Below are positions 3,159 to 37,319 of a stretch of DNA of 64,000 nt, in pieces. The notes under the pieces are model-generated. The model had not been told where the DNA came from, did no database searches, and saw only the letters and a list, made by a program, of their open reading frames with translations. Origin of the DNA: an uncultured Thermoleophilia bacterium (GTDB lineage Bacteria > Actinomycetota > Thermoleophilia > UBA2241). Position numbers and translations under genes: made by a program. Every line of letters begins with the position of its first letter. Within the stretch, counting starts at the first letter, position 1. The stretch covers positions 219,725 to 283,724 of the forward strand of contig CAVZSF010000005.1 of NCBI GenBank assembly GCA_963777895.1. Reading direction: 5' to 3'.

Positions 3159-3186
3159 AGGTCGCGGCGGCCGGGCGGCCGCGCGG

Positions 3187-11232: not shown

Positions 11233-11238
11233 TATACT
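11233..11238 (+). promoter_or_regulatory. candidate -10 box TATACT, 9 nt upstream of the iorA GTG (possible leaderless transcript)
   Basis: An AT-rich hexamer is rare in this GC-rich context. No Shine-Dalgarno sequence lies between it and the start codon. Confidence 0.3.
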
Positions 11239-11247
11239 CTGTGCCCC

Positions 11248-15429: not shown

Positions 15430-15436
15430 GCGACGG

Positions 15437-15475
15437 GGCGGGGGCCGGCCGCAGGCCGGCCCCCGCCTTCTTCTT
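15437..15475 (+). terminator. intrinsic terminator-like hairpin after paaK
   Basis: Perfect 14-bp GC stem (GGCGGGGGCCGGCC / GGCCGGCCCCCGCC) with a 3-nt loop, followed by TTCTTCTT. Confidence 0.6.
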
Positions 15476-16039: not shown

Positions 16040-16117
16040 GGCGCCGCTCGTGCGGGATGTCCTCGGCAAGAGCCGCCGGCCTGAGCGCCCCGTGTCGTTG
16101 AGCGCGCTCACGGCCCC

Positions 16118-16123
16118 TATACT
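16118..16123 (+). promoter_or_regulatory. candidate -10 box TATACT, 6 nt upstream of the AOR ATG (possible leaderless transcript)
   Basis: Same hexamer as upstream of iorA. No Shine-Dalgarno sequence. Confidence 0.3.
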
Positions 16124-16129
16124 GGCTGC

Positions 16130-17950
16130 ATGAGCGCCGTCACCAGCCTTTGTCCGCTTCGCGGTCTGCGGTTCGACCTGAGCAACGGGCATGGCACGGA
16201 AGAGGAGCTGCCCGTCGAGGCGGCGCGCGCCTTCCTGGGCGGGCGCGGCCTCGGCGCGCTGATCGCGCTGCGCGAGCGGCTGTACGAGGTCGAGCCGCTC
16301 GCGCCCGAGAACCTCCTTGTGTTCGCGCCGGGTCCGCTCACGGGCACCGGCGCCCCGGCCAGCGGCCGCTACAGCGTCACGAGCCGCTCACCGCTCACCG
16401 GCACCGTCTTCGACGGCAACTCCGGGGGCAACTGGGGCAACGCCTTCCGCCACCTGGGCTACGACTACCTGATCGTGGGCGGGTCCTGCGATGCTCCCTC
16501 GTATCTCATCGTCGACGAGCGCGGGGCCGAGCTGCGGCCGGCCGGCGAGCTCTGGGGCCTCGACGTGCCGGCCTCGCTCACGCGGCTGCGCGAGCTGCAC
16601 GCGGGCGGCGAGGCCGCCGTCATCGGCCCGGCCGGGGAGCGCGGCGTGCTGTTCGCGTCCATCGTCAACAACCGTGGCCGGTCGATCGGACGCGGAGGGC
16701 TGGGCGCCGTCATGGGGGCCAAGCGCCTCAAGGCGGTAGTGGTGACCGGGGGAGGCGCACGCAAGCCCGTCGTGGCCGACCCGGACAGGCTGGCGTTCGT
16801 CGCCTACGAGGCCGACAAGCTGCTGAAGGCCAACCCGATCACGTCGCAGGCGCTTCCCGAGTTCGGCACCTCGGTGCTCGTCAATGTGCTCGATCAGGCC
16901 GGCGCCCTGCCCACGCGCAACTACAGGGAGTCGCAGTTCGAACACGCGCAGGCGATCTCGGGTGAGGCGCTGCGGCGCGACTTCGTCCAGCGCCGCAGCG
17001 CCTGCCGCGGCTGCGGCATCGGCTGCGCCCGGCGCACTTCGACCGCGGCGGCCTCAGGTGAGGGTCCGGAGTACGAGACTATCTGGGCGCTTGGCGCCGA
17101 CTGTGGGGTCGGCGACCTGCGCGCCATCGTCGAGGCCAACTACGCCTGCAATCGCGCCGGCATGGACACCATCACGATGGGTTCGACGATCGCCTGCGCC
17201 ATGGAGCTCGCGGAGGATGACGCCCTGCCGGACGGTCCCCGTTTCGGGGACGCCGCCACCGTCGTCGCTCTGTGCGAGGCGACCGCGCGCGGCGAGGGTC
17301 TCGGCGAGGAGCTCGGGCAGGGTTCGGCGCGCCTGGCGGTGCGGCACGGCCGGCCCGAGCTCAGCATGTCGGTGAAGGGCCTGGAGATGCCGGCCTACGA
17401 CCCCAGGGGCATGAAGGCGCAGGGCCTCGCCTACGCCACCTCCAACCGGGGCGGCTGCCATCTGAGGGCGAACATGCTCGGTCCCGAGATCCTCGGCGTG
17501 CCCAAGATGGTCGACCGCTTCGCCACGCTCGGGAAGGCCGGCCTGCTCATCAACCTCCAGAACCTGAACGCGGTGCTCGACTCGCTGAGCGTCTGCAAGT
17601 TCACCGCCTTCGCCATGAAGGAGGACTACTACGCCCGACTGCTGAGCGCCGTGTGGGGCGAGACCGTCGAGCCGCAGGAGCTGCTCCAGCTGGGCGAGCG
17701 CATCTGGAACGCGGAGCGGCTCTTCAACCTGGCCGCCGGGTTTGCCCGCGCCGACGACACCCTGCCGCCGCGCCTCCTGAGCGAGCCGGTCCAGACTGGG
17801 CCCGCGAAAGGCCACGTCGTAGACTTGCCGCCGATGCTGGACGAGTACTACCTATCGCGCGGCTGGGACGGCGACGGCCGGCCCACGCCGGCAAAGCTGG
17901 GGCGGCTGGGGCTCACCGAGCTCGCCGCCGCGGCGGGCGCCGTCTCGTGA
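16130..17950 (+). CDS. aldehyde:ferredoxin oxidoreductase family (tungstopterin enzyme)
   Basis: 606 aa. The N-terminal FLGGRGLGA, the SPLTG..FDGNSGG region, GLEMPAYDPRG, CHLRA and the C-terminal YYLSRGWD are all characteristic of the AOR family. Confidence 0.85.
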   Translation: MSAVTSLCPLRGLRFDLSNGHGTEEELPVEAARAFLGGRGLGALIALRERLYEVEPLAPENLLVFAPGPLTGTGAPASGRYSVTSRSPLTGTVFDGNSGGNWGNAFRHLGYDYLIVGGSCDAPSYLIVDERGAELRPAGELWGLDVPASLTRLRELHAGGEAAVIGPAGERGVLFASIVNNRGRSIGRGGLGAVMGAKRLKAVVVTGGGARKPVVADPDRLAFVAYEADKLLKANPITSQALPEFGTSVLVNVLDQAGALPTRNYRESQFEHAQAISGEALRRDFVQRRSACRGCGIGCARRTSTAAASGEGPEYETIWALGADCGVGDLRAIVEANYACNRAGMDTITMGSTIACAMELAEDDALPDGPRFGDAATVVALCEATARGEGLGEELGQGSARLAVRHGRPELSMSVKGLEMPAYDPRGMKAQGLAYATSNRGGCHLRANMLGPEILGVPKMVDRFATLGKAGLLINLQNLNAVLDSLSVCKFTAFAMKEDYYARLLSAVWGETVEPQELLQLGERIWNAERLFNLAAGFARADDTLPPRLLSEPVQTGPAKGHVVDLPPMLDEYYLSRGWDGDGRPTPAKLGRLGLTELAAAAGAVS

Positions 17951-18555
17951 GCTCGGCCGTCGTCGAGCAGTTCGCCCGCATCGGCCGGGACCTCTTCGTC
18001 GCCGGCCTCATCAGCTCCCACGGCGGCAACATGAGCGTGCGCCAGGGCGACCGCATCCTCATCACGCGCCGGGGCTCGATGCTCGCGCAGCTCGAGGAGC
18101 GCGACGTCATTGAGACGGGGCTGGACGAGAACGACGCCAATGTGATGTTGGCCTCGACCGAGATCGGCGTGCATCGCGCGATCTACCAGGCCACCTCCGC
18201 CCTGGCGATCGTCCACACGCACCCGCCCTATGCCATCGCCCAGTCGCTCGTGAAGGACGAGATCGTGCCGGTCGACAGCGAGGGCTCCTACCTGCTGCAC
18301 AAGGTGCCGGTGGTCCAGACCGAGCTGACCGCCGGCTCGAAGGAGGTGGCCGAGGTCTTGCCCCGCTGGCTCAAGGAGTACGACATCGTCCTCCTGCGCG
18401 GCCACGGGCCCTTCGCCATCGGCCACCTGCTCGAAGAGGCCTACCAGCTCACCAGCGTGCTCGAGATGACGTGCCGCATCCTCACCATCGCCGAGAGCAT
18501 GGGAGCGGAGGTCAAGGAGTACCGCAAGGGCAGCGACCAGTACAGGAGCTGGTAG
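17947..18555 (+). CDS. class II aldolase/adducin family protein
   Basis: SSHGGNMSVR, VHTHPPYA and LLRGHGPFAIG motifs. GTGA overlap with the AOR gene. Confidence 0.75.
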   Translation: MSSAVVEQFARIGRDLFVAGLISSHGGNMSVRQGDRILITRRGSMLAQLEERDVIETGLDENDANVMLASTEIGVHRAIYQATSALAIVHTHPPYAIAQSLVKDEIVPVDSEGSYLLHKVPVVQTELTAGSKEVAEVLPRWLKEYDIVLLRGHGPFAIGHLLEEAYQLTSVLEMTCRILTIAESMGAEVKEYRKGSDQYRSW

Positions 18556-22479: not shown

Positions 22480-22848
22480 ATGACGAGCGAATATCTCACC
22501 AACTGGCTGTACGTCTGGGCGTTCATCGTCGCCGGGGCCGCTCTCGTGGTGCTCATCCTGCTGTTCGCCAAACTGGTGAACCCGGAGCACCTCAGCCCCG
22601 AGAAGCTGAGCCCCTACGAATGCGGCATCCCGCCCGTCGGTACGCCGTGGGCGCCGTTCGCCGTGCGCTACTACGTCTTCGCGCTCCTCTTCCTCGTGTT
22701 CGACGTCGAGGCGGTCTTCCTCTTCCCCTGGGCGCTCACGTTCCGCACGCTGGGCACAGCCGGGTTCGTCGAGATGATGTTGTTCATCGTCGTGCTGGCG
22801 TGGGGCCTGCTGTACGCGTGGCGCAAGGGGGCCCTCGAGTGGGCTTGA
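22480..22848 (+). CDS. nuoA: NADH-quinone oxidoreductase subunit A
   Basis: YECGIPPVG ... [22 protein letters not shown]. The internal ATG of ORF 22369..22848 is taken as the start. Confidence 0.85.
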
Positions 22849-22864: not shown

Positions 22865-23398
22865 TTGAAGGTCAGGTACCCGAAGCTCGAACATATCGAG
22901 CACCCCAACGTAATCACGACGACGGCCGACTTCATCTTCAGCTGGGCTCGCTCAAACTCGGTCTTCCCCTTCACGTACGGCCTCGCCTGCTGCGCCATCG
23001 AGATGCTCAGCTCGGGCTTCGCGCGCTTCGACGTGGCGCGCTACGGCATGGAGGTCTTCCGGCCGACGCCGCGCCAGTGCGACCTCATGATCGTGGCCGG
23101 TACGGTCAACGAGAAGATGGCGCCCGTCCTGCGCCGTCTCTACGACCAGATGGCCGAGCCGAAGTGGGTCATCGCGATGGGCGCCTGCGCGACCAGCGGC
23201 GGCCCCTTCTACGACGGCTACAACGTCGTCAACGGCGTGGACAAGATCGTGCCGGTCGACGTGTACATCCCCGGTTGTCCGCCCCGGCCCGAGGCGCTCT
23301 TCCAGGGTCTTCTCGAGCTGCAGAAGAAGATCCAGCAGCACAAGTTCGTGCCCGAGACGCCGGGGACGGCGGTCGAGGCCGGGAAGGCTGCCGACTGA
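22865..23398 (+). CDS. nuoB: NADH-quinone oxidoreductase subunit B
   Basis: [19 protein letters not shown] and PGCPPRPE. Confidence 0.9.
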
Positions 23399-23399
23399 C

Positions 23400-23894
23400 A
23401 TGGCGCTCGAGATCGGCTCCTTCAAGCTGACCATGGACGAGATCGCCCTGCGCCTGGACGAGGCGTTCGAGGGCGAGCTCGAGGACGTGCGCGTGCAGGA
23501 GCCGGACACCATCGTCGCCGGGCTCGACCGCACCAAGCTCCTCGACGTGGCGCGCCGTCTGAAGGACCTTCCGCAGATCGGCTACGAGACGCTCAACTTC
23601 ATCGCCGCGGTCGACCACGGCAAGCAGCTCGAGAGCGTGTACCACGTGTACTCGTGGCACACGAACACGTACCTCGAGCTGCATGTCGCGGTGCCGCGCG
23701 GCGCCGCCGAGCTCGACACCGTGACCGGTGTCTGGCCGGCGGCCGACTGGCACGAGCGCGAGGCCTGGGACATGATGGGCATCCGCTACCTCGGCCACCC
23801 CGACCTGCGCCGCATCCTCCTCAAGGACGACTTCGTCGGGCATCCGCTGCGCAAGGACTACGTCGACCTGGCCGAGAACCATCCGCATGCCTGA
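23400..23894 (+). CDS. nuoC: NADH-quinone oxidoreductase subunit C
   Basis: [29 protein letters not shown]. Confidence 0.9.
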
Positions 23895-25101
23895 GCAGCT
23901 CACCACAGCCGAGCCCGACGAGGCCCTCAAGCTCGCGCTGCGCCGTATCGACGAGGCGCGCGCCCGCGGCGAAGGCTCCGACGTCGAGGGCCTCGAGTTC
24001 AACGAGGTCGTCGTGAACATGGGGCCGCAGCACCCGTCGACCCACGGCGTGCTGCGGCTCGTCGTCACCCTCGACGGCGAGCTCGTCAAAGACGTGATCC
24101 CGGTGATCGGCTACCTGCACCGCTCCAAGGAGAAGCTCGCCGAGAGGCGCACGTATTATCAGTACATACCGATCGTCGACCGCACGGAGTACCTCGCGAG
24201 CATGAACTGCGAGTGGGGCTACGTGATGACGGTCGAGAAGCTCATGGGCATCCGGCCGACGCGGCGCGCGGAGGTCATCCGGGTCCTTCTCGGCGAGCTC
24301 ATGCGCATCGCCAGCCACCAGGTCGCCGTCGGCACGTTCGTCGCCGACCTCTCGCCTTTGGGTACGGCGATGGTCTTTTACATGTTCCGCGACCGCGAGG
24401 TCATCCTCGACCTGCTCGAGGAGGTCTCCGGGGCACGCATGATGTTCAACTACCTCCGCTTCGGCGGCGTGCGCTACGACCTGCCCGACGGCTGGGTCGA
24501 GCGGTGCCGCGACTTCATGAAGCGCTTGCCCAAGCTGATCGACGAGTACGAGTCGCTGGTCGACGACAACGCCATCTTCCTGCAGCGCGCCGTCGGCAAG
24601 GGCGTCATCACCCAGCAGGACGTGAAGGACTACGGCATCACGGGTCCCAATGCGCGAGCCTCGGGGGTCGCCCTCGACCTGCGTCGCACCCGGCCGTACT
24701 CGATCTATCCCGAGCTGGACTTCGAGATCTGCACCGCAGCGCACGGCGACGTGTTCGACCGCTACAGAGTGCGCATGGATGAGATGCGCGAGTCGGTGAA
24801 GATCGTCGAGCAGTGCCTCGACAAGCTGCGCCCCGGGCCGGTGCAGCTGGGTTCGCTGCGCGCCCCCTATGTCATCACGCCGCCACCGGGCGCCTGCTAC
24901 GTGGGCCAGGAGAACCCGCGCGGCGAGTACGGCACGTACATCGAGAGCGACGGGTCGCGGTACCCCGCGCGGCTGAAGTTCCGCGACCCCTGCTTCTGCA
25001 ACCTGCAGCTCTTCCCCAAGCTGCTGCGCGGCAACAAGATCGCCGACGCGGTGGCCATCTCCGGCAGCATCGACCTCGTGCTGGGAGGGATCGACCGCTA
25101 G
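23887..25101 (+). CDS. nuoD: NADH-quinone oxidoreductase subunit D
   Basis: [24 protein letters not shown] and a C-terminal VLGGIDR. Confidence 0.9.
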
Positions 25102-26235
25102 ATGGACTGGCTGGACTGGGATCTCGTCATCGACGTCGCCCGCCTCGTCGTCTGCATCGTGGTCGCCTACCTGGTGGTCTTCGCCGCCGCGCTCGCCAAC
25201 ATCGTCTTCGAGCGCCGCGCCCTCGCCTTCATGCAGGACCGCCACGGCCCCAACCGCGTCGGTCCCCACGGGATCTTCCAGAGCATCGCCGACGCCTTCA
25301 AGATGATGGGCAAGGAGGACTTCCGGCCGGCGTTCGCCGACCCGTGGATCTTCACGCTGGCGCCGATCCTCGTGATGGTCGGCGCCGTCGCCGTCCAGCT
25401 GACGATGCCCTACACCAAGGGCTTCACGCCGGCCGACCTGAACGTCGGGCTCATCTACATCGTCGCCGTCACCAGCTTCACGACGATGGCGATCCTGCTG
25501 GGCGGCTGGGCGTCGCGCAACAAGTACTCGCTCGTCGGCGCGCTCCGTTCCGGCGCCCAGATGATCAGCTACGAGATCCCCATGATCCTGGCGCTGCTCG
25601 TGGTCGCGATGGCGGTCGGCTCACTCAGCCTCAACGACGTCGTGGCGGCCCAGGCCGACTACAAGTGGCTCGCGATCTACATGCCGTTCACCTTCCTGCT
25701 TTACATCATCGCCGCCATCGCCGAGCTCAATCGCGGCCCCTTCGACCTGCCCGAGTCGGAGTCGGAGCTCGTCTCGGGCTACGGCACCGAGTACTCCGGC
25801 ATGCGCTTCGGCATGTTCTTCCTGAACGAGTACGCCGGCATGACGATCATGTCGATGGTCGCCGTCACCATCTTCCTGGGCGGCTGGCACGGCCCCTTCG
25901 AGGACCTCATCACCATCGGCGGGGTGGCCATCGTGCCCTTCATCTGGTTCATGCTGAAGACCTACCTGCTGGTCTTCGCCCTGGTATGGGTGCGGCTCTC
26001 GCTGCCGCGCCTCCAGGTCGACCAGCTCATGAGCTTCGCCTGGAAGGTCCTCATCCCGCTCGGCCTCGTGAACATCGCCGTCTCGGCGGCCGTGATGCTC
26101 TGGGTACCGAGCTGGAAGTGGGGGCTGCTCGTGGCGGGCTGGGCCTCGCTACTCGCCTTCGTCGCGCTCTTCGACCCCGTCCTCAAGTGGCGCCTGCGCA
26201 AGCAGCGTGACGCTGTGCCGGTGGTGAACGCCTGA
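25102..26235 (+). CDS. nuoH: NADH-quinone oxidoreductase subunit H
   Basis: ERRALAFMQDRHGPNRVGP, ELNRGPFDLPESESELVSGY.TEYSG. Confidence 0.9.
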   Translation: MDWLDWDLVIDVARLVVCIVVAYLVVFAAALANIVFERRALAFMQDRHGPNRVGPHGIFQSIADAFKMMGKEDFRPAFADPWIFTLAPILVMVGAVAVQLTMPYTKGFTPADLNVGLIYIVAVTSFTTMAILLGGWASRNKYSLVGALRSGAQMISYEIPMILALLVVAMAVGSLSLNDVVAAQADYKWLAIYMPFTFLLYIIAAIAELNRGPFDLPESESELVSGYGTEYSGMRFGMFFLNEYAGMTIMSMVAVTIFLGGWHGPFEDLITIGGVAIVPFIWFMLKTYLLVFALVWVRLSLPRLQVDQLMSFAWKVLIPLGLVNIAVSAAVMLWVPSWKWGLLVAGWASLLAFVALFDPVLKWRLRKQRDAVPVVNA

Positions 26236-26996
26236 TGCTCGGCATGTTCAAGGCCATGCGGACGACGCTCCGCCACCTGCCCATGAAGAAGATCACGGTC
26301 GAGTACCCGGAGGAGCGCGACCGCCTGCCCGAGCGCAGCCGCGGCCTCTTCCGCGTCGTGATCGACCCGGTGAGCGGCGAGCCGCGCTGCCGTGCCTGCA
26401 CGCTGTGCGAGACGAACTGCCCGGTGCAGGTCATCCGCGTGAACTACACGTCCAAGTACCCTCTGCCCGTGCCGAACGCGGCGCGTGTCACCAAGGCGCG
26501 GGTCGAGGCGCAGAAGGACGTCGACCTCAAGAAGCTGCGGCCGGTGCTCGACGAGTTCTACGAGCACGGCACCGGCCTCATCGCCATGCTGCAGCAGACG
26601 CAGGAGGTGTACGGCTACCTGCCGCGCATGGCCCTGCAGGAGGTCTCGCTGCAGACCGGCGTCTCGCTCTCGCAGATCTACGGCGTCTCGAGCTTCTACA
26701 ACCAGTTCCGGCTCTCGCCGGTCGGCAAGTACCTCATCGACGTCTGTCACGGCACCGCCTGCCACGTGGCGGGCGCCACGCAGATCACCGAGGCCCTGGA
26801 GGAGGAGCTCGGTGTCGCGAACGGGCGTACGACCAAGGACATGCTCTTCACGCTCGGCTCGGTGGCGTGCATGGGGGCCTGCTCGCAGGCGCCCGTCATG
26901 CGCATCGGCGACGACACCTACGGAGGCATCACCCCAGACCGGACGCGCAAGATCATCCGCGACCTCATGGCCGAGGTCGGAGCGACAAAGGGGTGA
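26235..26996 (+). CDS. fusion protein: N-terminal half of NuoI (single 4Fe-4S motif) joined in frame to a complete NuoE/HydC-type [2Fe-2S] subunit
   Basis: aa 1-75 read KITVEYPEERDRLPERSRGLF...CRACTLCETNCP (26388..26423), as in the NuoI N-terminus. aa ~100-253 read LIAMLQQTQEVYGYLP, GVSSFYNQF, VCHGTACHVAG and CMGACSQAPV, as in NuoE. It is a single uninterrupted ORF. Confidence 0.8.
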   Translation: MLGMFKAMRTTLRHLPMKKITVEYPEERDRLPERSRGLFRVVIDPVSGEPRCRACTLCETNCPVQVIRVNYTSKYPLPVPNAARVTKARVEAQKDVDLKKLRPVLDEFYEHGTGLIAMLQQTQEVYGYLPRMALQEVSLQTGVSLSQIYGVSSFYNQFRLSPVGKYLIDVCHGTACHVAGATQITEALEEELGVANGRTTKDMLFTLGSVACMGACSQAPVMRIGDDTYGGITPDRTRKIIRDLMAEVGATKG

Positions 26997-27005: not shown

Positions 27006-28910
27006 ATGGCTGACGAGACGAAGGTTGACGAGGTGACGGCCGAGGCCCAGACCGAGGCGCGCAACGTGCGCGTCGAGCGCGAGCGCGACGGACGCCTGCG
27101 CGTGACCGTGTGCGCGGGCACGGCTTGCGTCTTCGCCGGCTCGCTGGCCGTGCACGACGCCTTCGTCGAAGAGGTCAGGGCGGCCGGCCTCGAGAGCGAG
27201 GTCAGAGTCTCGATCATCGGCTGCCACGGCCTGTGCTCGCAGAGCCCCGTCACGGTCTGCTCCGACGACATCTTCTACGGCCGTCTGCGGCCGCAGGACG
27301 CGAAGGTCGTCGTCGAGCAGCATTTCCGCGGCGGCACGCCCGTCGAGAAGTTCATGTACAAGGACCCCGCGACGGGCGCGGTCGTGCGCGACTGGCACGA
27401 TATCGGCTTCTACCGGCAGCAGACCCGCATCGCGTTGCGCAACGTCGGCGTGATCGACCCCGAAAGCATCAGCGAGGCGATCACGCGCGGCGGCTACGAC
27501 GCCGCGCGTCTGGCGCTCACGTCAAGGACACCCGAGTGGATCGTCCAGCACGTGACCGACTCGGGCATCCGCGGGCGCGGCGGCGCCGGCTTCCCGACCG
27601 GCGTCAAGTGGGAGTTCGCGAGCAAGTCGCCGGGGGCCGAGAAGTACATCATCTGCAACGCCGACGAGGGCGACCCCGGCGCGTTCATGGACTGTTCGAT
27701 CCTCGAGGGCGACCCCCACGCCGTCGTCGAGGGCCTGCTGATCGGCAGCTACGCGATCGGCGCGCACGAGGGCTACGTCTACGTGCGCGCCGAATACCCG
27801 CTCGCCGTGAAGCGCCTCACGAAGGCCATCGCCGACGCAGAGGCGCGCGGCTTCATCGGCAAGGACTGCTTCGGCACCGGGTGGGAGTTCAACCTCCACA
27901 TCAAGCTCGGCGCCGGCGCCTTCGTCTGTGGCGAAGAGACCGCGCTGATCGCCTCGATCGAGGGCAAGCGCGGCATGCCGCGCACCCGGCCGCCGTACCC
28001 GGCCGTCTCGGGCCTCTGGGGCAAGCCGACCAACATCAACAACGTCGAGACGCTCGCCAACATCCCGTGGATCATCACCCACGGCGCCGAGCAGTACGCG
28101 GCGCTCGGCGCCGAGCGCAGTCGCGGCACCAAGGCCTTCTCGCTGGCCGGCAAGATCGTCAACGGTGGCCTCGCCGAGGTGCCGATGGGCTCGACGCTGC
28201 GCAACGTGATCTTCGACGTGGGCGGCGGCATCAAGGACGGCCGCGAGTTCAAAGCGGTACAGCTCGGCGGGCCGTCCGGCGGCTGCGTGCCGGCGAGCCT
28301 CCTCGACACGCCGGTCGACTACGAGTCCCTCGCCGCGACCGGCGCCATCGTCGGCTCGGGTGGCATGGTCGTCGTCGACGACCAGACCTGCATGGTCGAC
28401 CTGGCGCACTTCTTCCTGCAGTTCACGCAGAACGAGAGCTGCGGCAAGTGCGTGCCCTGCCGGCTCGGCACCAAGCGCATGCTCGAGACGCTGGAGCGCA
28501 TCACGGCCGGCGACGGCCGCGAGGGCGACATCGAGATGCTCGAGGAGCTGTCGCACTACATCATCGACGGCTCGCTGTGCGCCCTTGGCGGCACCGCGCC
28601 CAACCCCGTGCTCACCACCATCAAGTACTTCCGTGACGAGTACGAGGCGCACGTGCGCGAGAAGCGCTGCCCCGCCGGCAAGTGCAAGGCGCTCATCACC
28701 TACTACATCGACGCCGAGGCGTGCACGGGCTGCACGCTCTGTGCCAAGAAGTGCCCCACGCAGTGCATCACGGGAGAGAAGAAGCAGCTCCACGTGATCG
28801 ACGTGACCAACTGCATCAAGTGCGACACCTGCCGGCAGGTGTGCAAGTTCGACGCCGTCAAGGTGCGCTCGGGCATCGAGCAGCCGGCCGGCGTCGCCGG
28901 GGAGGCCTGA
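27006..28910 (+). CDS. NuoF-like NADH/FMN subunit of the long HydB/HndC type (N-terminal thioredoxin-like [2Fe-2S] domain, C-terminal 2x[4Fe-4S] ferredoxin domain)
   Basis: CAGTAC...CHGLC, then GRGGAGFPTG, NADEGDPGAF and ESCGKCVPCR, then CTGCTLCAKKCP and CIKCDTCRQVC. Confidence 0.85.
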   Translation: MADETKVDEVTAEAQTEARNVRVERERDGRLRVTVCAGTACVFAGSLAVHDAFVEEVRAAGLESEVRVSIIGCHGLCSQSPVTVCSDDIFYGRLRPQDAKVVVEQHFRGGTPVEKFMYKDPATGAVVRDWHDIGFYRQQTRIALRNVGVIDPESISEAITRGGYDAARLALTSRTPEWIVQHVTDSGIRGRGGAGFPTGVKWEFASKSPGAEKYIICNADEGDPGAFMDCSILEGDPHAVVEGLLIGSYAIGAHEGYVYVRAEYPLAVKRLTKAIADAEARGFIGKDCFGTGWEFNLHIKLGAGAFVCGEETALIASIEGKRGMPRTRPPYPAVSGLWGKPTNINNVETLANIPWIITHGAEQYAALGAERSRGTKAFSLAGKIVNGGLAEVPMGSTLRNVIFDVGGGIKDGREFKAVQLGGPSGGCVPASLLDTPVDYESLAATGAIVGSGGMVVVDDQTCMVDLAHFFLQFTQNESCGKCVPCRLGTKRMLETLERITAGDGREGDIEMLEELSHYIIDGSLCALGGTAPNPVLTTIKYFRDEYEAHVREKRCPAGKCKALITYYIDAEACTGCTLCAKKCPTQCITGEKKQLHVIDVTNCIKCDTCRQVCKFDAVKVRSGIEQPAGVAGEA

Positions 28911-28912: not shown

Positions 28913-31492
28913 ATGGCGACGACGATCGACGACACCGCCCGCTCCGGCCTCGATCTGTTCGACCAGGTCACGCTCACCATCGACGAGCAGGAGGTCGTCT
29001 GCGAGCGCGGCGAGACCATCCTCGAGGCCGCCCAGCGCGTGGGTATCCACATCCCGACGCTGTGCTACGAGCCCCGGCTGCCCGCGACGGCGGCCTGCCG
29101 CGTGTGCCTCGTCGAGGTCGAGGGCGCGCGCAAGCTGGTGCCGAGCTGCTCCACGGCGGCCGCCGAGGGCATGGTGGTCAAGACGCATACCGACAAGGTG
29201 CGCGCCATGCGCCACCTCTACCTCGAGCTGCTGCTGAGCGATCACAACTCGTTCTGCACGCCGCCGTGCCGCGACGCCTGCCCGACACACATCAAGATCC
29301 CGCAGTTCCTCGACTACATCGCGCACAAGGACTACAAGAACGGCGTCCGCAAGCTGCGCGAGGACCTGCCCTTCCCGTCCGTCCTCGGCCGCGTCTGCCC
29401 GCGCCCCTGCGAGGGGCCGTGCCGTCGCCAGCTCGTCGAGCACCCCATCACCATCTGCTGGCTGCACCGCTTCATGGGAGACCAGTGTCTCGAGGAGCAG
29501 CAGACGGGCGAGCTGCTGCTGCCGGTCGAGCCGAAGGCCGACACCGGCAGGCGCGTCGCCATCGTGGGCGGCGGACCCGCGGGGCTCGCCGCCGCCTTCT
29601 ACGCCCGGCTCGAGGGCCATGCCGTCAAGGTCTTCGAGGCGCTGCCCAAGCCGGGCGGCATGCTGCGCTACGGCATCCCGAGCTACCGCATGCCGCGTGA
29701 CATCCTCGACAAGGAGCTCAACATCCTCTGGCGCATGGGTGTCGAGCTGCAGGTCAACACGCGCCTCGGCGTCGACTTCCAGCTCGAGGAGCTGTTCGAG
29801 GAGGGCTTCGACGCCGTCTTCCTCGCCCTGGGCGCCTTCAACTCGAACGAGATGGGCGTCCCCGGCGAGGATGCCGACGGCGTCGTCACCGCGGTCGACT
29901 TCCTCGGCGAGCTCGAGATCAACGGCGTGGTCCACGTGGGCGAGAAGGTCACCGTCATCGGCGGCGGCTTCACGGCGATGGACGCCTGCCGCACCAGCAT
30001 GCGCAAGGGCGCGAAGGAGGTCACCTGCCTCTACCGCCGCTCGCGCAAGGAGATGCCGGCCCACGTCACCGAGGTCGACGAGGCCGAGGAGGAGGGCGTC
30101 AAGCTCGAGCTGCTGTGCGCGCCGGTGCGCGTGGTGACCGACGACCGCAACAAGGTCACGGGCATCGAGATGCAGCGCATGGAGCTGGGCGAACCGGACG
30201 CCTCCGGCCGCCGCCGCCCTGTACCCGTCGAGGGCTCCGAGTTTGTGATCGAGTGCGACCAGGTCATCACCGCCATCGGCCAGTATCCGAAGCTCGACGG
30301 CACGAGCGAGGACCAGGGCGTCAAGCGCACCAAGTGGCGCACGATCCAGGTCGACGACTGGACCTTCCAGACCGACGACCCCCGCGTGTTCGCCGGCGGC
30401 GACGTCGTGCTCGGCGCGCAGACCGTGATCCAGGCGGTCGCCCAGGGCAAGAAGGCGGCCTGGAGCATCGACGCCTGGCTGCGCGGCGTCGACATGAAGG
30501 AAGCCTCGCAGCACCTCGCCGAGCTCAAGGCGTCGCCCTTCCTGGCCGCCCTCAACGGCAAGACCGACCTCGACCCGCGCATCAGCCGCATGGCCGAGGT
30601 CCCGCCCGTGTTCATCGACATGACCACCGACGTGTCGCAGCCGTCGCCGCCGGCCTCGATGCCCAAGCTCTCCCCCGATGAGCGCAAGGATGACTTCCGG
30701 CAGATCGAGCTGGGCTTCCCCGAAGACGAGGCGGTGCGCGGCGCCGAGCTTTGCCTGGACTGCTACTGCCCCGCCAACGGCAAGTGCGACCTGCAGCGCT
30801 ACTCCATCGAGTACGAGGTATTCAAGAACCGCTTCCACGGCGGCGACGCCCACGCCTACCCGGCCGACTTCCGCCACGACTTCATCATGCGCGAGCCCAA
30901 CCGCTGCATCAATTGCGGCCGCTGCGTGCGCGTCTGCCGTCTCGAGGTGGGCTCGAGCTGCTACGACAACATGGGTCGCGGCTTCGACAGCATCGTGTCG
31001 ACGGCCGACAACCTGCCGCTGCAGACGGTCGGCTGCGTCTCGTGCGGCAAATGCGCCGAGACCTGCCCGACCGGCGCCATCGAGACGAACCCGCGTCTGC
31101 TGGCGAGCTACGACCTCGACGAGAGCCGCTGCATGTTCTGCGGCGAGTGCGTCGAGGTCTGCCCGTACGACGCGCTGGAGCAGACCGACTTCTTCGAGCT
31201 GGCCGGCTTCAGCCGCACCACCATGGCGCGCGAATCGCTCTACGTGCGGGAGCCGCGCCCGGTCGACCCGCTGCGCGAGACCGTGACCGACCTCGTCCCG
31301 CACGTGCGCGACGCCGTGCTCGGCCGGGGCTGGCTGTGGGATCCGGTCCAGGACGACCCGATCGACCTGGACGCGGCCGGAGGCAACGGCAAGGCGCCGG
31401 CGAAGCCGCGCGCCGCGACCGCTCCGCCGGTCGCGGCGGCCGACGGCACGGCCGACGACCGGCCGGCAGATCCCCCTGGGGGTGAGGGCTGA
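28913..31492 (+). CDS. composite Fe-S flavoprotein: NuoG-type N-terminal [2Fe-2S] domain, GltD/NfnB-type FAD-NAD(P)H oxidoreductase module, NuoG-type 4Fe-4S motifs, and C-terminal half of NuoI; no molybdopterin-like domain
   Basis: CYEP...CRVCLVEVEG...SC; LLLSDH then CTPPCRDACP...GRVCPRPCEGPCRR; VAIVGGGPAGL, GGMLRYGIPSYRMP, VIGGGFTAMD, YRRSRKEMPA and GEPDASGRRRP; CLDCYCPANGKCDLQ; CINCGRCVRVC; CVSCGKCAETCPTGA; CMFCGECVEVCPYDA..DFFELA (31130..31165). Confidence 0.8.
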   Translation: MATTIDDTARSGLDLFDQVTLTIDEQEVVCERGETILEAAQRVGIHIPTLCYEPRLPATAACRVCLVEVEGARKLVPSCSTAAAEGMVVKTHTDKVRAMRHLYLELLLSDHNSFCTPPCRDACPTHIKIPQFLDYIAHKDYKNGVRKLREDLPFPSVLGRVCPRPCEGPCRRQLVEHPITICWLHRFMGDQCLEEQQTGELLLPVEPKADTGRRVAIVGGGPAGLAAAFYARLEGHAVKVFEALPKPGGMLRYGIPSYRMPRDILDKELNILWRMGVELQVNTRLGVDFQLEELFEEGFDAVFLALGAFNSNEMGVPGEDADGVVTAVDFLGELEINGVVHVGEKVTVIGGGFTAMDACRTSMRKGAKEVTCLYRRSRKEMPAHVTEVDEAEEEGVKLELLCAPVRVVTDDRNKVTGIEMQRMELGEPDASGRRRPVPVEGSEFVIECDQVITAIGQYPKLDGTSEDQGVKRTKWRTIQVDDWTFQTDDPRVFAGGDVVLGAQTVIQAVAQGKKAAWSIDAWLRGVDMKEASQHLAELKASPFLAALNGKTDLDPRISRMAEVPPVFIDMTTDVSQPSPPASMPKLSPDERKDDFRQIELGFPEDEAVRGAELCLDCYCPANGKCDLQRYSIEYEVFKNRFHGGDAHAYPADFRHDFIMREPNRCINCGRCVRVCRLEVGSSCYDNMGRGFDSIVSTADNLPLQTVGCVSCGKCAETCPTGAIETNPRLLASYDLDESRCMFCGECVEVCPYDALEQTDFFELAGFSRTTMARESLYVREPRPVDPLRETVTDLVPHVRDAVLGRGWLWDPVQDDPIDLDAAGGNGKAPAKPRAATAPPVAAADGTADDRPADPPGGEG

Positions 31493-32004
31493 TGCCCGGC
31501 GGCGACTTCCACCCGTTCTTCTTCATCGTGATGGCGGTCTGGATCCTGGGCTGCGCGATCGGCGTCGTCGCCTTCCGCAAGATCGTCTACAGCGCCGTCG
31601 CCATGGTCTTCTGCTTCCTCGGCGTGGCGGGCGCGTACGCGCTGCTCAACGCCGAGCTGGTCGCCATCATCCAGGTGCTCGTCTACGTCGGCGCGATCTC
31701 GGTGGTGGTGCTCTTCGCCATCATGCTCACCGAAGCTCAATCCGGCGAGTACAAGCTGTTCTTCAACCGCCAGGCCGTCCTCGCCTTGCCGCTGGCCGTG
31801 GCCGGCGCGGTGCTGCTGGCGGTGGTGCTGATCTCGTCCGAGATCGTCGACACCGGTACGACGTCACTCAACCTCAGCGTCGATGCCCTCTCCAAGCTGC
31901 TCTTCAACGCCTACGTCTTCCCGTTCGAGCTGGTCTCGCTGGTGCTGCTTGCCGCGATGATCGGCGCGATCGTGCTGGCGCGCCGGGAGGGGGAGAAGCC
32001 GTGA
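31492..32004 (+). CDS. nuoJ: NADH-quinone oxidoreductase subunit J
   Basis: AELVAIIQVLVYVGAISVVVLFAIML. The start overlaps the preceding stop by 1 nt. Confidence 0.85.
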   Translation: MPGGDFHPFFFIVMAVWILGCAIGVVAFRKIVYSAVAMVFCFLGVAGAYALLNAELVAIIQVLVYVGAISVVVLFAIMLTEAQSGEYKLFFNRQAVLALPLAVAGAVLLAVVLISSEIVDTGTTSLNLSVDALSKLLFNAYVFPFELVSLVLLAAMIGAIVLARREGEKP

Positions 32005-32309
32005 GCCCGCTCGACTACTGGCTGACCCTCAGCGTCGCGCTGTTCTGCATCGGGGCCTTCGGCGTGCTGGCGCGGCGCAACACGATCCTCGTGATCATGA
32101 GCCTGGAGCTCATGCTGAACGCCGTCAACATCGCGCTCGTCGCCTTCGCCAACTTCCGCACCGGCGCCCAGGGCGCGGGCGTGCTGTTCTCGCTGTTCGT
32201 GATCACGCTGGCCGCGGCCGAAGTCACGGTCGGGCTGGCCATCGTGATCGCCAACTACCGCACCAAGCGGACCGTCCAGGCTGACGAGTTCAGCGAGCTC
32301 AAGGGCTGA
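32001..32309 (+). CDS. nuoK: NADH-quinone oxidoreductase subunit K
   Basis: LFCIGAFGVLARRN.ILVIMSLELMLNAVN ... AAAEVTVGLAIV. GTGA overlap with nuoJ. Confidence 0.85.
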   Translation: MSPLDYWLTLSVALFCIGAFGVLARRNTILVIMSLELMLNAVNIALVAFANFRTGAQGAGVLFSLFVITLAAAEVTVGLAIVIANYRTKRTVQADEFSELKG

Positions 32310-32322: not shown

Positions 32323-34231
32323 GTGGAGAGCACCGATTACATGAAGATCGCCGTCACGCTGATCCCGCTGCTGCCGCTGGCCGGCTTCATCCTGACGCTG
32401 CTGTTCGGCAAGCGCATGGGGAGCAAGGCCCACCTGTTGCCGGTAGCTCTCGTGACGGGCTCGGCCGTGCTGGCGGTGTACGCGTTCGAGTGGGTCTTCC
32501 GTCACCAGGAAGAGCCCTTCGTCTGGAACGCCTTCACCTGGATGGCGGCCGGTCGCTTCGAGGTCAGCTGGGGCTTCCAAGTCGACACGCTGACCGCGGT
32601 CATGCTGCTCGTGGTCGGCCTTATCGGCATGCTGGTGCACTACTACTCGATCGGCTACATGCACGGCGACGGCGGCTACTACCGCTTCTTCGCCTACCTG
32701 AACCTCTTCATGTTCGCGATGTTCATGCTGATCCTCGCGGACAACTACCTGCTGCATGTTCCTCGGCTGGGAGGGCGTCGGTCTCTGCTCGTACCTGCTC
32801 ATCAGCTTCTGGTTCCCCAAGAAGAGCGCGAGCCAGGCGGGCAAGAAGGCCTTCCTGGTCAACCGGGTCGGCGACTTCGGCTTCACGCTCGGCATGCTGC
32901 TCATCTTCGTGACGGTCGGGACGCTGCAATTCACCGGTGTCTTTGAGAAGGCCGAGGAGATCCCCGGCGGGACGGCGACGTGGATCTGCCTGCTGCTCTT
33001 CATCGGCGCCGTCGGCAAGAGCGCCCAGTTCCCGCTGCACGTGTGGCTGCCCGACGCCATGGAGGGCCCGACCCCGGTCAGCGCCCTGATCCACGCGGCG
33101 ACCATGGTCAACGCCGGCGTCTACATGGTGGCGCGCTCGTACCCGCTCTTCATCCAGAGTGACAGCGCCATGCTGGTCGTGATGATCATCGGGACCTTCA
33201 CGGCGATCTACTCCGCGTACATCGCGATCACCCAGAACGACATCAAGAAGGTGATCGCGTACTCGACCGTGTCGTCACTCGGCTTCATGTTCCTGGCGCT
33301 GGGCGCCGGCGCGTGGGCGGCCGGCATCTTCTACCTGTTCGTGCACGGCTTCTTCAAGGGCCTGCTCTTCCTGTGCTCGGGCTCGGTGATCCACGCCATG
33401 GGCGGCGAGCAGGACATGCGCAAGATGGGCGGGCTGCGTAAGCGCATCCCCCTGACGTTCTGGACGATGCTCGCCGGCGCGATCGCGCTGATCGGCGTCT
33501 TCCCCTTCGCCGGCTTCTGGGCGAAGGACGAGATCCTGGGCGGCGCCTTCGTGCAGGGGTACTACGTCGTCTGGGCGGTCGGCATCGTGACGGCGTTCCT
33601 CACGGCGGTCTTCGCCTTCCGCCTCATCTTCATGACCTTCTTCGGCGAGTGCCGCGCCGACGAGGAGGTCCAGCAGCACATCCACGAGTCGCCCAAGGTC
33701 ATGACGATCCCGCTGGTGCTGCTCGCCATCCCCTCGATGGCGCTCGGCCTGCTCGCGGGCTTCCCGCCCGAAGGCGGCTGGATCCACACCTTCCTCGAGC
33801 CCGTCTTCTACGAGGTCGAGCACGAGGAGTTCGCCTGGCTCGGCGAGGGCGGCGGGCTCATGCTCTTCTCAGTCGCCGTCGCCCTGCTGGGCGTGTACCT
33901 CGCGTACGTCATGTACATCAGGCGGACCGAGCTGCCGGCAAAGCTGGCGGGACGTTTCCCGGCGGCCTATCGCGCGTCGCTGAACAAGCTGTACATGGAC
34001 GAGGTCTACGAGAAGGTGCCGATCCGCAGCACCATCGCCTTCGCGGGCTGGCTGTGGACCTTCGTCGACGTGAAGGTGATCGACGGGGCCGTCAACGGTC
34101 TGGCCTGGGTGTGGGGCTGGTTCGGGGCCGTGCTGCGGCCGCTGCAGACCGGGCGCGTCCAGAACTACGCCTTCGGGATCTTCGCGGGCATGGTGCTGCT
34201 CGTGGTCATCGTCGGGCTCTGGAAGGTGTGA
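32323..34231 (+). pseudogene. nuoL: NADH-quinone oxidoreductase subunit L, interrupted by one +1 frameshift
   Basis: ORF 32323..32946 reads correctly up to LILADNYLL. ORF 32756..34231 continues with MFLGWEGVGLCSYLLISFW. The extra base is near 32755. Confidence 0.85.
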
Positions 34232-34232: not shown

Positions 34233-35819
<1,587 letters not shown>

Positions 35820-37319
35820 ATGAACAACTCCGTGACGGTGATCCTGCCCGGCGTCGTGGTCGCGGCGAGCGCGCTGCTCGTCTTCCTGGTCGACATGTTC
35901 AGCGCGCGCAAGGCGATCCTCGCCTGGATCGCGGCCGCCGGTCTGGTCGCGGCCGCCGTCGTCGCCGTCGGCCAATGGCTGACGCTGGACGGCGGCGTGC
36001 GTTTCGACCGCATCGAGCCCAGGGCCGGGTTCAGTTCCATGGTCGGGCTCGACAAATACGCCCTGTTCTGCGTGCTGCTGTTCTCGGTCATCGGCGTGCT
36101 GACGATCATGCTCTCCGACGCCTACATGAGTCGCCGCCGCGACGCCCGCGGCGAGTTCTACGGGCTCCTCCTGCTGATCATCACCGGCATGATCGGGATG
36201 GCCGTCTCGACCGACATCATCGCCCTGTTCGTCTCGTTCGAGCTGATGTCGCTGCCCACCTACGTGCTGGCCGGCTTCGTGCGCGGCAACGAGCACTCCG
36301 GCGAAGCCGCCGTGAAGTACTTCGTCAATGGCGCCTTCGCCTCGGCGATCCTGCTCTTCGGTCTGGCCCTGCTTTACGGCGCCACGGGCATGACGAACTA
36401 CGCGAGCATCGCGGCCCGGCTCAGCAACCTCGGGCCGGACCTGCAGAGCGGTGTCATCCTCGTCTCGCTGGTACTGATCTGCGTCGGTTTCGGCTTCAAG
36501 ATCTCCGCGGTGCCCTTCCACGGCTGGGCGCCGGACGTCTACGAGGGCGCCCCCACCCCAGTGACCGCTTTCATGTCGGTGGGGGTGAAGGCCGGGGCCT
36601 TCGTCGGCTTCCTCAAGCTCTTCACCGTCGCCGTCGGCTTCCAGAGCGACACGTGGACCGCCGTGCTCACCGTGCTCGCCGTCGTCACCATGGTGGTCGG
36701 CAACGCGCTCGCCCTGCCGCAGCGCAACCTCAAGCGCATGCTCGCCTACTCGAGCATCGCGCACGCCGGCTACCTGCTCCTGGGTGTCATCGCCGCCGGC
36801 GAGTCGCCCTCGAGCGGTGGTTCGAGCGCCGTCCTCTTCTACCTCGGCGCCTACGCCTTCATGAACCTGGGCGCCTTCGGGGTCCTGGTGGTCGTGCGCA
36901 ACCGCCGCACCTTCGCGTACACGCTCGACGAGGTCGCGGGCCTGGGGCGCTCGATGCCATGGGCCGCGCTCGCCATGACCCTCTTCATGGTGTCGCTCGC
37001 GGGCATCCCGCCGACGGTCGGCTTCTGGGGCAAGTTCTACGTCTTCACGGCGGTCGTGGACGCCGGGCTCACCTGGCTCGCCATCGTCGCCGTGATCATG
37101 AGCGCGGTGTCCGCCTTCTACTACCTGCGCGTGGTGTGGTACCTGTACTTCCGGGAGGCGCCCGAGGGCGCGGAGCCGGAGGCCGAGCCCGAGGGCGCCT
37201 CGCTGGGCGCCGGCGCCGCGGTGGCGCTGGCGGCGCTGGGCGTGCTGCTGCTGGGTCTGTATCCCTCACCGCTCATCCACGCCGCTCAAGGCGCGCTGCG
37301 CCTCGTCATCGGGGGCTGA
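35820..37319 (+). CDS. nuoN: NADH-quinone oxidoreductase subunit N
   Basis: FELMSLPTYVLAGF, FHGWAPDVYEGAPTPVTAF and AYSSIAHAGY. Confidence 0.9.
   Translation: MNNSVTVILPGVVVAASALLVFLVDMFSARKAILAWIAAAGLVAAAVVAVGQWLTLDGGVRFDRIEPRAGFSSMVGLDKYALFCVLLFSVIGVLTIMLSDAYMSRRRDARGEFYGLLLLIITGMIGMAVSTDIIALFVSFELMSLPTYVLAGFVRGNEHSGEAAVKYFVNGAFASAILLFGLALLYGATGMTNYASIAARLSNLGPDLQSGVILVSLVLICVGFGFKISAVPFHGWAPDVYEGAPTPVTAFMSVGVKAGAFVGFLKLFTVAVGFQSDTWTAVLTVLAVVTMVVGNALALPQRNLKRMLAYSSIAHAGYLLLGVIAAGESPSSGGSSAVLFYLGAYAFMNLGAFGVLVVVRNRRTFAYTLDEVAGLGRSMPWAALAMTLFMVSLAGIPPTVGFWGKFYVFTAVVDAGLTWLAIVAVIMSAVSAFYYLRVVWYLYFREAPEGAEPEAEPEGASLGAGAAVALAALGVLLLGLYPSPLIHAAQGALRLVIGG

Follow-up and report, generated by a model that had tools for sequence, protein, structure and literature searches.

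A NuoI split between two fusion proteins around an NfnABC-type module in the complex I operon of an uncultured Thermoleophilia bacterium

Where is the NuoI subunit of the complex I of an uncultured Thermoleophilia bacterium, and what stands in its place? The question is raised by a stretch of 64,000 nucleotides (assembly GCA_963777895.1, contig CAVZSF010000005.1, positions 219,725 to 283,724 of the forward strand), which was analysed as a whole and is called the window below. Its nuo operon has the gene order nuoA-B-C-D-H-[I_N::E]-F-[NfnA::I_C]-J-K-L-M-N, and no intact nuoI was found in this operon. What makes the locus unusual is that NuoI is split and doubly fused: its N-terminal half (I_N) precedes a NuoE, and its C-terminal half (I_C) ends a protein of the NfnA type. 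The first-pass annotation, which described the latter protein as a NuoG with a nested flavoprotein, had missed the split. It looks as if an E-F-A (nfnCBA-type) operon had been inserted into the nuoI gene of an 11-gene operon. With a rough probability of 0.6, I propose that reduced nicotinamide adenine dinucleotide phosphate (NADPH) at a flavin adenine dinucleotide (FAD), reduced nicotinamide adenine dinucleotide (NADH) at a flavin mononucleotide (FMN), and reduced ferredoxin feed one Fe-S chain, which would lead through the rebuilt NuoI and cluster N2 to menaquinone, with proton pumping.

The two halves of NuoI

The inserted block consists of three genes, the last of which ends in the second NuoI half.

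26235..26996, + strand: N-terminal half of NuoI (residues 8-74, 26256..26456) fused to NuoE/BfuC (residues 108-244, 26556..26966); TIGR01971, PF01257
27006..28910, + strand: NuoF of the HydB/NfnB (BfuB) type; phmmer against PDB, Pfam
28913..31492, + strand: truncated NfnA (BfuA) with a nested GltD module, plus the C-terminal half of NuoI; a single open reading frame (ORF) of 859 residues
31085..31297, + strand: C-terminal half of NuoI (C740/C743/C746/C750-P); TIGR01971 positions 68-114

Across this block the genes overlap or lie at most 9 nucleotides apart. The start of the I_N::E gene overlaps the nuoH stop codon, and the ATG of the NfnA::I_C gene (28913) lies 2 nucleotides past the NuoF stop, its end being at 31492 in the ORF list (+ strand). 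Positions 2-66 of the NuoI model TIGR01971 match residues 8-74 of the first fusion, while positions 68-114 of the 121-position model match residues 725-771 of the second (NCBIfam), where the NuoI half makes up the last ~130 residues of the 859-residue protein. Neither half alone reaches the TIGR01971 cutoff, and the two CxxCxxCxxxCP motifs lie on two polypeptides. Once the halves are joined, no NuoI sequence element is missing and their order is collinear, none of the eight Cys varies, and the joined sequence aligns uninterrupted to NDUFS8, NuoI, Nqo9, and NdhI of solved complex I (for 5xtb_B, query 4-119 to chain 30-141, E = 7e-19).

The junction in the second fusion is precise. After C708..C718-P and a 22-residue linker, the protein continues with the NuoI-type sequence CMFCGECVEVCPYDALEQTDFFELAG, and the third CxxCxxCxxxCP motif of the ORF, CMFCGECVEVCP, occupies 31130..31165. 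The distance from C718 to C740 is exactly 22 residues, at the place where solved NfnA runs into a formate-dehydrogenase-like domain. In the first fusion, a normal NuoE (PF01257, residues 108-244, 2.5e-46) follows the NuoI part; the Cys residues are C52/C55/C58/C62 in the NuoI part and C171/C176/C212/C216 as the 2Fe-2S ligands.

Is this arrangement real? A scan of one genome per species gave 74 related loci, nearly all, judged by record title, in metagenome-assembled genomes (MAGs) of uncultured Thermoleophilia or Actinomycetota from soil, peat, lake sediment, and an anaerobic membrane bioreactor. The same 13-gene order was found at every locus with enough flanking sequence, the sole exception being a paralogue (locus L043, described below), and identity in the fusion protein is 58-92% at these loci, the nearest titled relative being UBA2241 (89% identity). 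The 33 cluster Cys, His111, and His185 are invariant in 46/46 full-length fusion sequences, and the C718-to-C740 spacing is 22 residues in all 46. The eight Cys of I_N::E are invariant in 48/48 relatives. Overall, the arrangement, the cluster ligands, and the 22-residue junction are kept in about 50-70 uncultured Thermoleophilia genomes. Public annotation calls the fusion protein of relatives "formate dehydrogenase major subunit" or "FAD-dependent oxidoreductase" and gives I_N::E as plain "NuoE", and precomputed Pfam annotation does not recognise the NuoI halves.

These data bear on the explanation that a soluble NfnABC operon lies by coincidence beside nuo genes, or that the fusions are errors of assembly or gene calling. 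The window assembly does have apparent indels, in nuoL and in an FdhA-like gene. However, about 50-70 genomes that were assembled independently, and many metagenome contigs as well, have both fusions in the same frames and with the 22-residue linker, and with no intact nuoI in the operon the other 11 subunits need both fusion proteins for the N6a/N6b relay. An artefact is thus scarcely credible. Since gene order, Cys ligands, and linker length recur across relatives, comparison indicates that the fusion is real and under selection, and neither an assembly artefact nor a mis-called gene. The reading of 28913..31492 as two or three separate genes was likewise rejected on conservation grounds, since at least 45 relatives have this gene as one ORF.

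A truncated NfnA and its partners

What kind of protein carries the C-terminal half of NuoI? The remaining parts of the fusion protein are as follows.

28964..29245, + strand: 2Fe-2S domain (A1; C51/C62/C65/C79) up to His111 of the split His-cluster (A3/N5-type) motif; PF13510, residues 18-93
29255..30751, + strand: nested GltD/NfnL-type module, Fer4_20 (A6/A7) plus predicted FAD and NADPH Rossmann folds; PF14691, PF07992
30752..30787, + strand: second half of the split His-cluster motif, C614-x2-C617-x-C619-x5-C625; motif described for NsoC/StnC (PMC7483475)
30905..31069, + strand: HydA/NuoG-type 2x[4Fe-4S] domain (A2, the N4 equivalent, and A4; C665/668/671/675 and C708/711/714/718); PF22117
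31298..31489, + strand: Ala/Pro-rich C-terminal tail, where conservation falls to 0.66-0.74

The 2Fe-2S part ends in LELLLSDH (residues 104-111; His111 codon 29243..29245), and the first half of the split motif reads H111-x3-C115-x3-C119-x3-C123-P. The chain then runs through CTPPCRDACP (29255..29284), GRVCPRPCEGPCRR (29387..29428), VAIVGGGPAGL (29555..29587), VIGGGFTAMD (29954..29983), YRRSRKEMPA (30032..30061), and GEPDASGRRRP (30188..30220) before it reaches CLDCYCPANGKCDLQ (30752..30796), CINCGRCVRVC (30905..30937), and CVSCGKCAETCP (31034..31069). The tail is poorly conserved, with a length of 35 to 282 residues among relatives. The first-pass annotation had placed a GltD module between His111 and the CxxCxC motif, and all the motifs that it listed do lie in one + strand ORF. 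Its spans also stand, except that CLDCYCPANGKCDLQ ends at 30796 and not at 30786. This set of motifs and domains is far above chance.

In Pfam, the fusion protein matched Fer2_4 at residues 18-93 (3.5e-20), Fer4_20 (PF14691) at residues 115-195 (1.3e-18), Pyr_redox_2 (PF07992) at residues 214-512 (4.8e-36), which is a complete flavoprotein of the pyridine-nucleotide-disulphide type, and Fer4_Nqo3 (PF22117), the NuoG/HydA ferredoxin-like domain, at residues 657-723. The two-cluster Fer4_20 domain is typical of GltD and dihydropyrimidine dehydrogenase. Thus, mapping of the boundaries with Pfam and NCBIfam hidden Markov models, which had been advised at the outset, confirms the nesting and assigns the nested segment to an FAD/NADPH-type flavoprotein family. 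Neither Molybdopterin nor Molybdop_Fe4S4 matched the fusion protein in Pfam, as expected from the earlier claim that a molybdopterin-like domain is absent, and the NuoG model TIGR01973 matched residues 21-115 only, with 114 bits against a cutoff of 470 (NCBIfam).

The best match among solved structures was NfnA of Caldicellulosiruptor (9bov_A, E = 8.9e-191), whose alignment to residues 19-526 scored 545 bits and whose alignment end is at residue 747. Stn of Sporomusa (8oh5_C, 1.1e-164) and NfnA of Thermococcus (9n5u_A, 2.9e-156) followed, while NfnL of NfnSL (5.7e-91) and GltD (about 5e-70) were far weaker. The module was therefore placed nearest NfnA. The model NF009454 (PRK12814) covers residues 17-675 in one stretch with 628.9 bits, under its trusted cutoff of 916. 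In the literature, NsoC/StnC/NfnA are recognised by just such a GltD module within the His-cluster motif (PMC7483475). Thus, the nesting itself is already known: it defines the A subunit of NfnABC (Bfu-family) transhydrogenases, for which structures from cryo-electron microscopy (cryo-EM) exist, and on sequence grounds the fusion protein is better named a truncated NfnA (BfuA) than a NuoG.

Can the interrupted His-cluster site still bind a cluster? In the cryo-EM structure of the Caldicellulosiruptor enzyme (Csac), the electron path is FAD-A7-A6-A3-A2-A1-[B1-FMN-C1]-B3-B4, and A2-A4-A5 form a dead-end branch into the Fdh-like domain (PMC11829005). Because A3 lies in the path of the solved homologue, the A3 site (the N5 equivalent) is predicted to bind a cluster here as well. 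An AlphaFold2 model of the fusion protein, built on a 28-sequence alignment, had a mean predicted local distance difference test (pLDDT) score of 59.5. The flavoprotein core scored 70-94, and all Fe-S regions and residues 616-859 scored below 50, where the model is unusable.

The ligand set for A6/A7 in the nested module is C115, C119, C123, C162, C166, and C170, with H185 at the position of the lysine ligand of NfnA. In all NfnABC, the A7 cluster beside the FAD is ligated by three Cys and one Lys, and the Lys is needed for activity (PMC12018979). Lysine K170 of Csac aligns with His185 (codon 29465..29467). Cys182 (29456..29458), three residues upstream of His185, is present in 45/46 relatives and His185 in 46/46, and the same CxxH pattern occurs at the A7 position of a Thermoleophilia paralogue. 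This is one reason why the subunit was not filed simply as NfnA.

Does the nested module turn over NADP(H)? The GGGPAG (GxGxxG) and GGGFTA (GxGxxA) motifs and the YRRSRxEMPA stretch, with its R375/R376/R378 region, are conserved in relatives. These features support the assignment of the module as a putative FAD/NADP(H) site in a full GltD/NfnL-type flavoprotein. The flavoprotein site might instead reduce another acceptor, such as polysulfide, oxygen, or Fe(III), as an electron outlet with no NADP(H) turnover. GltD-type homologues with such activities exist, since the studies cited in PMC7483475 have NsoC of NsoABCD in polysulfide or oxygen reduction and SfrB of SfrAB in Fe(III) reduction, and the A7 ligand is His here and Lys in NfnABC. 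However, relatives keep the two dinucleotide-binding motifs as well as the Arg-rich stretch of the NADPH type, and the closest solved relatives of the module oxidise NADPH, which makes another acceptor very improbable. The earlier suggestion of a second pyridine-nucleotide site, for NADPH, is borne out by homology, given these motifs and the NADPH-oxidising 9bov_A, 8oh5_C, and 9n5u_A as the closest relatives.

The NuoF between the two fusions was compared in the same way. It has a thioredoxin-like N-terminal 2Fe-2S domain (B5; C36/41/73/77), an FMN/NADH domain, the B1 4Fe-4S cluster, a B2 His/Cys site (H549, C462, C555, C560), and a C-terminal 2x[4Fe-4S] domain (B3/B4) at 28701..28862. Its 634 residues aligned full-length to proven bifurcating B subunits (7t2r_B, 8e-240; 9bov_B, 1.1e-234; 8oh5_B; 9n5u_B; phmmer, PDB), to which it is ~65% identical. 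The match to Nqo1 of T. thermophilus (2.2e-120) was about half as strong as that to HydB/NfnB (E about 1e-235). Schut et al. (2022, PMC9304861) use the presence of B2-B5 to tell bifurcating family members apart from relatives that do not bifurcate, such as Nqo, and the B2 His/Cys, B3/B4, and B5 ligands are kept in 43-44/44 relatives. Judging from the sites for FMN, B1, B2, B3/B4, B5, and C1, all of which were found, NuoF and NuoE are of the BfuBC bifurcating-core type. This homology also favours the earlier idea that an Nfn-like reaction is coupled to quinone reduction. Since NuoF keeps B2-B5 and the E-F-A order equals that of stnABC, the inserted block looks like a soluble nfnCBA-type operon rather than a rearranged nuoEFG.

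Related layouts and the proposed electron path

Does the rest of the operon encode a complex I? The other nuo genes are as follows.

22480..22848, + strand: nuoA; NCBIfam NF005839, 2.7e-32
22865..23398, + strand: nuoB, carrier of cluster N2; NF005012, 245.6 bits against a cutoff of 116, PGCPPRP motif visible
23400..23894, + strand: nuoC; TIGR01961 NuoC_fam, 1e-34
23887..25101, + strand: nuoD, quinone-site subunit; NF004739, 443 bits against a cutoff of 360
25102..26235, + strand: nuoH; NF004741, 339 bits against a cutoff of 305
31492..32004, + strand: nuoJ, its ATG overlapping the stop of the fusion gene by 1 nucleotide; NF005168, 1.4e-35
32004..32309, + strand: nuoK; PF00420, 7.8e-27; NF004322
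32323..34231, + strand: nuoL, in two frames through one extra base near 32753; ORFs 32323..32946 and 32756..34231
34233..35819, + strand: nuoM; TIGR01972, 598 bits against a cutoff of 263.8
35820..37319, + strand: nuoN; TIGR01770, 430.7 bits against a cutoff of 332.6

In the Q- and membrane modules, NuoB, D, H, K, M, and N reach or exceed NCBIfam subfamily or equivalog cutoffs, and A, C, and J are clear matches. A hydrogenase identity of the membrane part, of the Mbh/Ech type, was ruled out: no NiFe cysteine motifs were found in the NuoD sequence, and all subunits match best as Nuo. Relative to the close relative L009, nuoL has a 1-nucleotide insertion, which is probably an assembly error, as scattered frameshifts occur in many related MAG loci.

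Is the split confined to this layout? In a word-index search, I_N::E found only close relatives, 67-93% identical. An exhaustive search of representatives gave one distant full-length relative (P0242, 40% identity), on contig L075. This contig (50% GC, guanine plus cytosine) carries nuoH, I_N::E, NuoF::GltD, a HydA-type N-terminus::NuoI_C, and nuoJKLMN, with the variant block at 1321..6023. The GltD module sits at the C-terminus of the 1048-residue NuoF::GltD, in place of the B3/B4 domain, and its A7-ligand position is occupied by Glu, like that of NfnL. The A subunit, fused to NuoI_C and 265 residues long, has an uninterrupted HxxxCxxCxxxxxC motif. L077 (1571..2368) is a second example of this layout. 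P0493 on L076, considered as another fusion of a NuoG-like protein to I_C, was dropped, as a second NuoG-like gene and not nuoJ follows it.

A metagenome scan with the junction region revealed a third, common type, in which NuoB with or without NuoD is present and membrane nuo genes are absent nearby. Here I_N is fused to a cysteine-less NuoE-like domain, NuoF is short and lacks B3/B4/B5, and the nested-GltD A::I_C protein of about 800 residues is 46-50% identical to the window protein. Examples are L080 (1924..8486), L117 (3490..8495), and about 45 further metagenome loci among L079-L141. Their GC content ranges from 0.47 to 0.74, and thus several taxa carry this type. It looks like a soluble derivative of the peripheral arm of complex I. 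The junction is gap-free with an identical 22-residue linker in the Thermoleophilia and L075 types, and the L080 sequence has the same spacing. This common junction suggests a single origin of the A::I_C fusion, after which the GltD module came to lie in different places.

A paralogue was found at L043 (9878..14191), in a Thermoleophilia MAG that also carries a nuo-type gene. The product is the alpha subunit of a formate dehydrogenase, in which the same GltD module is nested; an in-frame TGA in HCART-U-HAPT probably encodes selenocysteine. No NuoE or NuoF genes lie within 10 kb of it. The GltD cassette of the window protein (29243..30751) is 73% identical to that of this FdhA paralogue and 52% to that of the divergent nuo-type L049. 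The flanking Fe-S parts have the opposite pattern, 46-51% to L043 and 64-77% to L049. As the two sets of identities run opposite, they suggest that the flavoprotein cassette was exchanged between paralogues.

The variant layouts bear on another explanation, in which the enzyme is a plain non-bifurcating NAD(P)H:menaquinone oxidoreductase. NADH and NADPH would feed it independently, the extra B clusters would be leftovers, and ferredoxin would not be a substrate. Canonical complex I works without bifurcation, L075 has a GltD module in place of the ferredoxin-binding B3/B4, and the membrane-less (S-type) clusters have a short NuoF without B3/B4/B5; ferredoxin coupling is therefore dispensable in related systems. 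In contrast, B3/B4, B5, and the B2 site are kept in nearly every Thermoleophilia-type sequence across a large divergence, NuoF closely resembles proven bifurcating B subunits, and ferredoxin-producing enzymes are encoded close by. A plain dehydrogenase is thus unlikely.

How may electrons pass through the complex if NADPH, NADH, and ferredoxin all feed it, as proposed above? The predicted cofactor motifs comprise FAD/NADPH, FMN/NADH, at least 10 Fe-S sites, and a complete NuoI. Where a ferredoxin fold holds two [4Fe-4S] clusters, three ligands of each cluster come from one Cys motif and the fourth from the other. Clusters N6a and N6b of NuoI can therefore be built only if the two fusion proteins pair, and this pairing would bolt the module onto NuoB/NuoD/NuoH without the NuoG C-terminal domain. 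Electrons from NADPH would pass from the FAD through A7-A6-A3 to the node cluster A2. Those from NADH at the FMN and from reduced ferredoxin at B4/B3 would be confurcated at B1-FMN-C1 and then pass through A1 to A2. From A2, probably via A4, they would proceed to N6a/N6b, N2, and menaquinone, driving proton pumping. The step from A2/A4 to N6a is proposed because the polypeptide leaves the dead-end branch of NfnABC straight into NuoI. Wired in this way, the complex could also work as an Nfn transhydrogenase, poising NADPH, NADH, and ferredoxin against each other.

The genes upstream of the operon include a ferredoxin-linked catabolic run at 11149..18555 (+ strand), which also contains a GNAT gene and a class II aldolase-like gene.

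11149..13029, + strand: indolepyruvate/2-oxoacid:ferredoxin oxidoreductase-like gene
13579..15429, + strand: PaaK-like AMP-binding ligase (AMP, adenosine monophosphate)
16130..17950, + strand: aldehyde:ferredoxin oxidoreductase

These three genes lie 5-11 kb upstream, and the content of the run suggests anaerobic amino-acid or aldehyde metabolism. Farther upstream, an FdhA/NuoG-like gene at about 3650..6345 (+) encodes a 2Fe-2S domain, the HxxxCxxCxxxxxC motif in intact form, molybdopterin domains, and an active site of the Cys type (HCARLCHAS). Its frame apparently shifts near 5080, and a stop codon lies in frame at 5398..5400; the gene is either a pseudogene or affected by sequence errors.

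Could the enzyme run the other way? In reverse mode, the proton motive force would drive electrons from menaquinol via N2 and NuoI into the A chain to make NADPH and, by bifurcation, reduced ferredoxin and NADH, for biosynthesis. Complex I and NfnABC are both reversible, and a direct FAD/NADP+ exit near a mid-potential chain would suit reverse electron transport. The reversibility of Stn has been reported (PMC7483475). However, no high-potential lithotrophic donor system was found in the window, and the ferredoxin-reducing catabolic neighbours argue for an excess of low-potential reductant, not a shortage, so that reverse operation as the main role is improbable. The forward, confurcating path would serve the re-oxidation of ferredoxin and NAD(P)H in anaerobic or facultative Thermoleophilia, a role that fits the nearby ferredoxin-dependent enzymes and the anoxic habitats of the relatives.

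Several points weigh against this confurcating proton pump. Electron transfer beyond the part homologous to NfnABC, including the direction of flow and the use of ferredoxin, is inferred. The docking may be canonical, with A3 (N5) facing N6a, which the roughly 11 free linker residues would allow. His185 in place of Lys could shift the potential of the entry cluster A7, and the module may then behave differently from NfnABC. As judged from their gene content, the membrane-less L080 and L117 indicate that some lineages have the split-NuoI module without a tie to proton pumping. The nuoL insertion may also be a real lesion, which leaves the intactness of the operon in this genome uncertain.

With these points in mind, it is tentatively suggested, at slightly less than an even chance, that the locus encodes an undescribed class of complex I. 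In this class a whole Nfn-type module, inserted as an operon into nuoI, would be held on the Q-module only by the NuoI halves, giving a proton pump that uses NADH, NADPH, ferredoxin, and menaquinone; the wider split-NuoI family would include L075, L080, and L117. If the wiring proposed above is right, one enzyme would combine two mechanisms that are usually studied apart, the redox-driven proton pumping of complex I and the flavin-based electron bifurcation of Nfn/Bfu, and an anaerobe could send electrons from NADPH, NADH, and ferredoxin into the quinone pool via one pump. The "dead-end" A2-A4 branch of soluble NfnABC would gain a function. The locus would also be a clear case of a multi-gene module inserted in a gene, both interrupted halves of which survived as fusions, and it bears on the recruitment of the NADH module onto an 11-subunit, ferredoxin-type ancestor of complex I. 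Since current labels are "NuoE", "FAD-dependent oxidoreductase", and "formate dehydrogenase major subunit", metabolic reconstructions of these Thermoleophilia, widespread in soil, peat, and sediment, probably misread the respiratory chain.

Comparison with known systems

How does the predicted enzyme differ from complex I as it is known? Like the canonical 14-subunit complex I (E. coli Nuo, T. thermophilus Nqo), it has NuoA, B, C, D, H, and J-N, an FMN/NADH site, 2Fe-2S clusters, and a 4Fe-4S relay to N2. Unlike it, the NuoG-like protein lacks the large C-terminal domain and has a flavoprotein inserted at the N5 motif, and there are an extra HydA-type cluster A4, three extra metal sites in NuoF, and a two-polypeptide NuoI.

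The 11-subunit relatives (cyanobacterial NDH-1, Fpo-like, and other nuoABCDHIJKLMN operons) have the same flanking order, and their NuoI is the point of electron entry. Ferredoxin or another partner donates to NuoI in these enzymes. Operons of this kind with an intact nuoI were found in the same metagenome scan (L149-L157). The difference is that the donor module of the window enzyme is covalently joined to NuoI and does not dock as a soluble protein.

Flavoproteins have been placed in such complexes before. The mbx-like operons of Thermotoga and proteobacteria have a gltD-related flavoprotein in place of NuoI (Degli Esposti 2015, PMC4758237), and in the Mbh-Bfu of Dehalococcoides, BfuABC is sandwiched in an Ech/Mbh cluster with an extra flavin site (Schut 2022, PMC9304861). 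Compared by their descriptions, both differ from the present locus in having hydrogenase or Mbx-type membrane modules, and no split, fused NuoI is reported for them.

Nuo-Bfu is closer. It was predicted in Geobacter, Deferribacteres, Planctomycetes, and Nitrospirae, and the proposal was that it pumps protons as electrons of NADH and reduced ferredoxin are confurcated onto menaquinone (PMC9304861). As in the window operon, BfuABC genes lie within the nuo cluster in place of NuoEFG. Nuo-Bfu as described has 14 subunits (A-N) and a BfuA with clusters A1-A5, whereas the window BfuA lacks A5. The window BfuA also has the nested FAD module, NuoI is split and fused, and E-F-A lies between nuoH and nuoJ. 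NuoI and Actinobacteria do not occur in the searched text of PMC9304861, nor is a flavin described there for the BfuA of Nuo-Bfu. The literature searched was found to describe neither a NuoI that is split and doubly fused, nor an A subunit of the Nfn type within a nuo operon, nor membrane-less NuoB clusters, which does not prove that no such description exists.

The closest likeness of the module itself is to NfnABC/Stn (NfnA = StnC = NsoC; 9bov/9bp5, 8oh5, 9n5u). The gene order C(NuoE-like)-B(NuoF-like)-A is the same, as it is in stnABC (E-F-A), and the sequence similarity is very high. The A subunit has the same succession of 2Fe-2S, HxxxCxxxCxxxCP, GltD/NfnL FAD-NADPH module, CxxCxCxxxxC, and 2x[4Fe-4S], and B1-B5 are found in the B subunit and C1 in the C subunit of both. 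In contrast to the solved NfnA subunits of 963-1178 residues, the 859-residue A subunit of Thermoleophilia lacks the Fdh/NuoG-like C-terminal domain and the A5 cluster, and it has His185 (CxxH) at the A7 position in place of the conserved Lys. The A subunit ends in the C-terminal half of NuoI, the C subunit starts with the N-terminal half, and the whole module is embedded in a nuo operon. Thus, Nfn-Bfu was known before as a solved enzyme and Nuo-Bfu as a prediction only, and what appears to be new here is the split-NuoI/Nfn-module arrangement.

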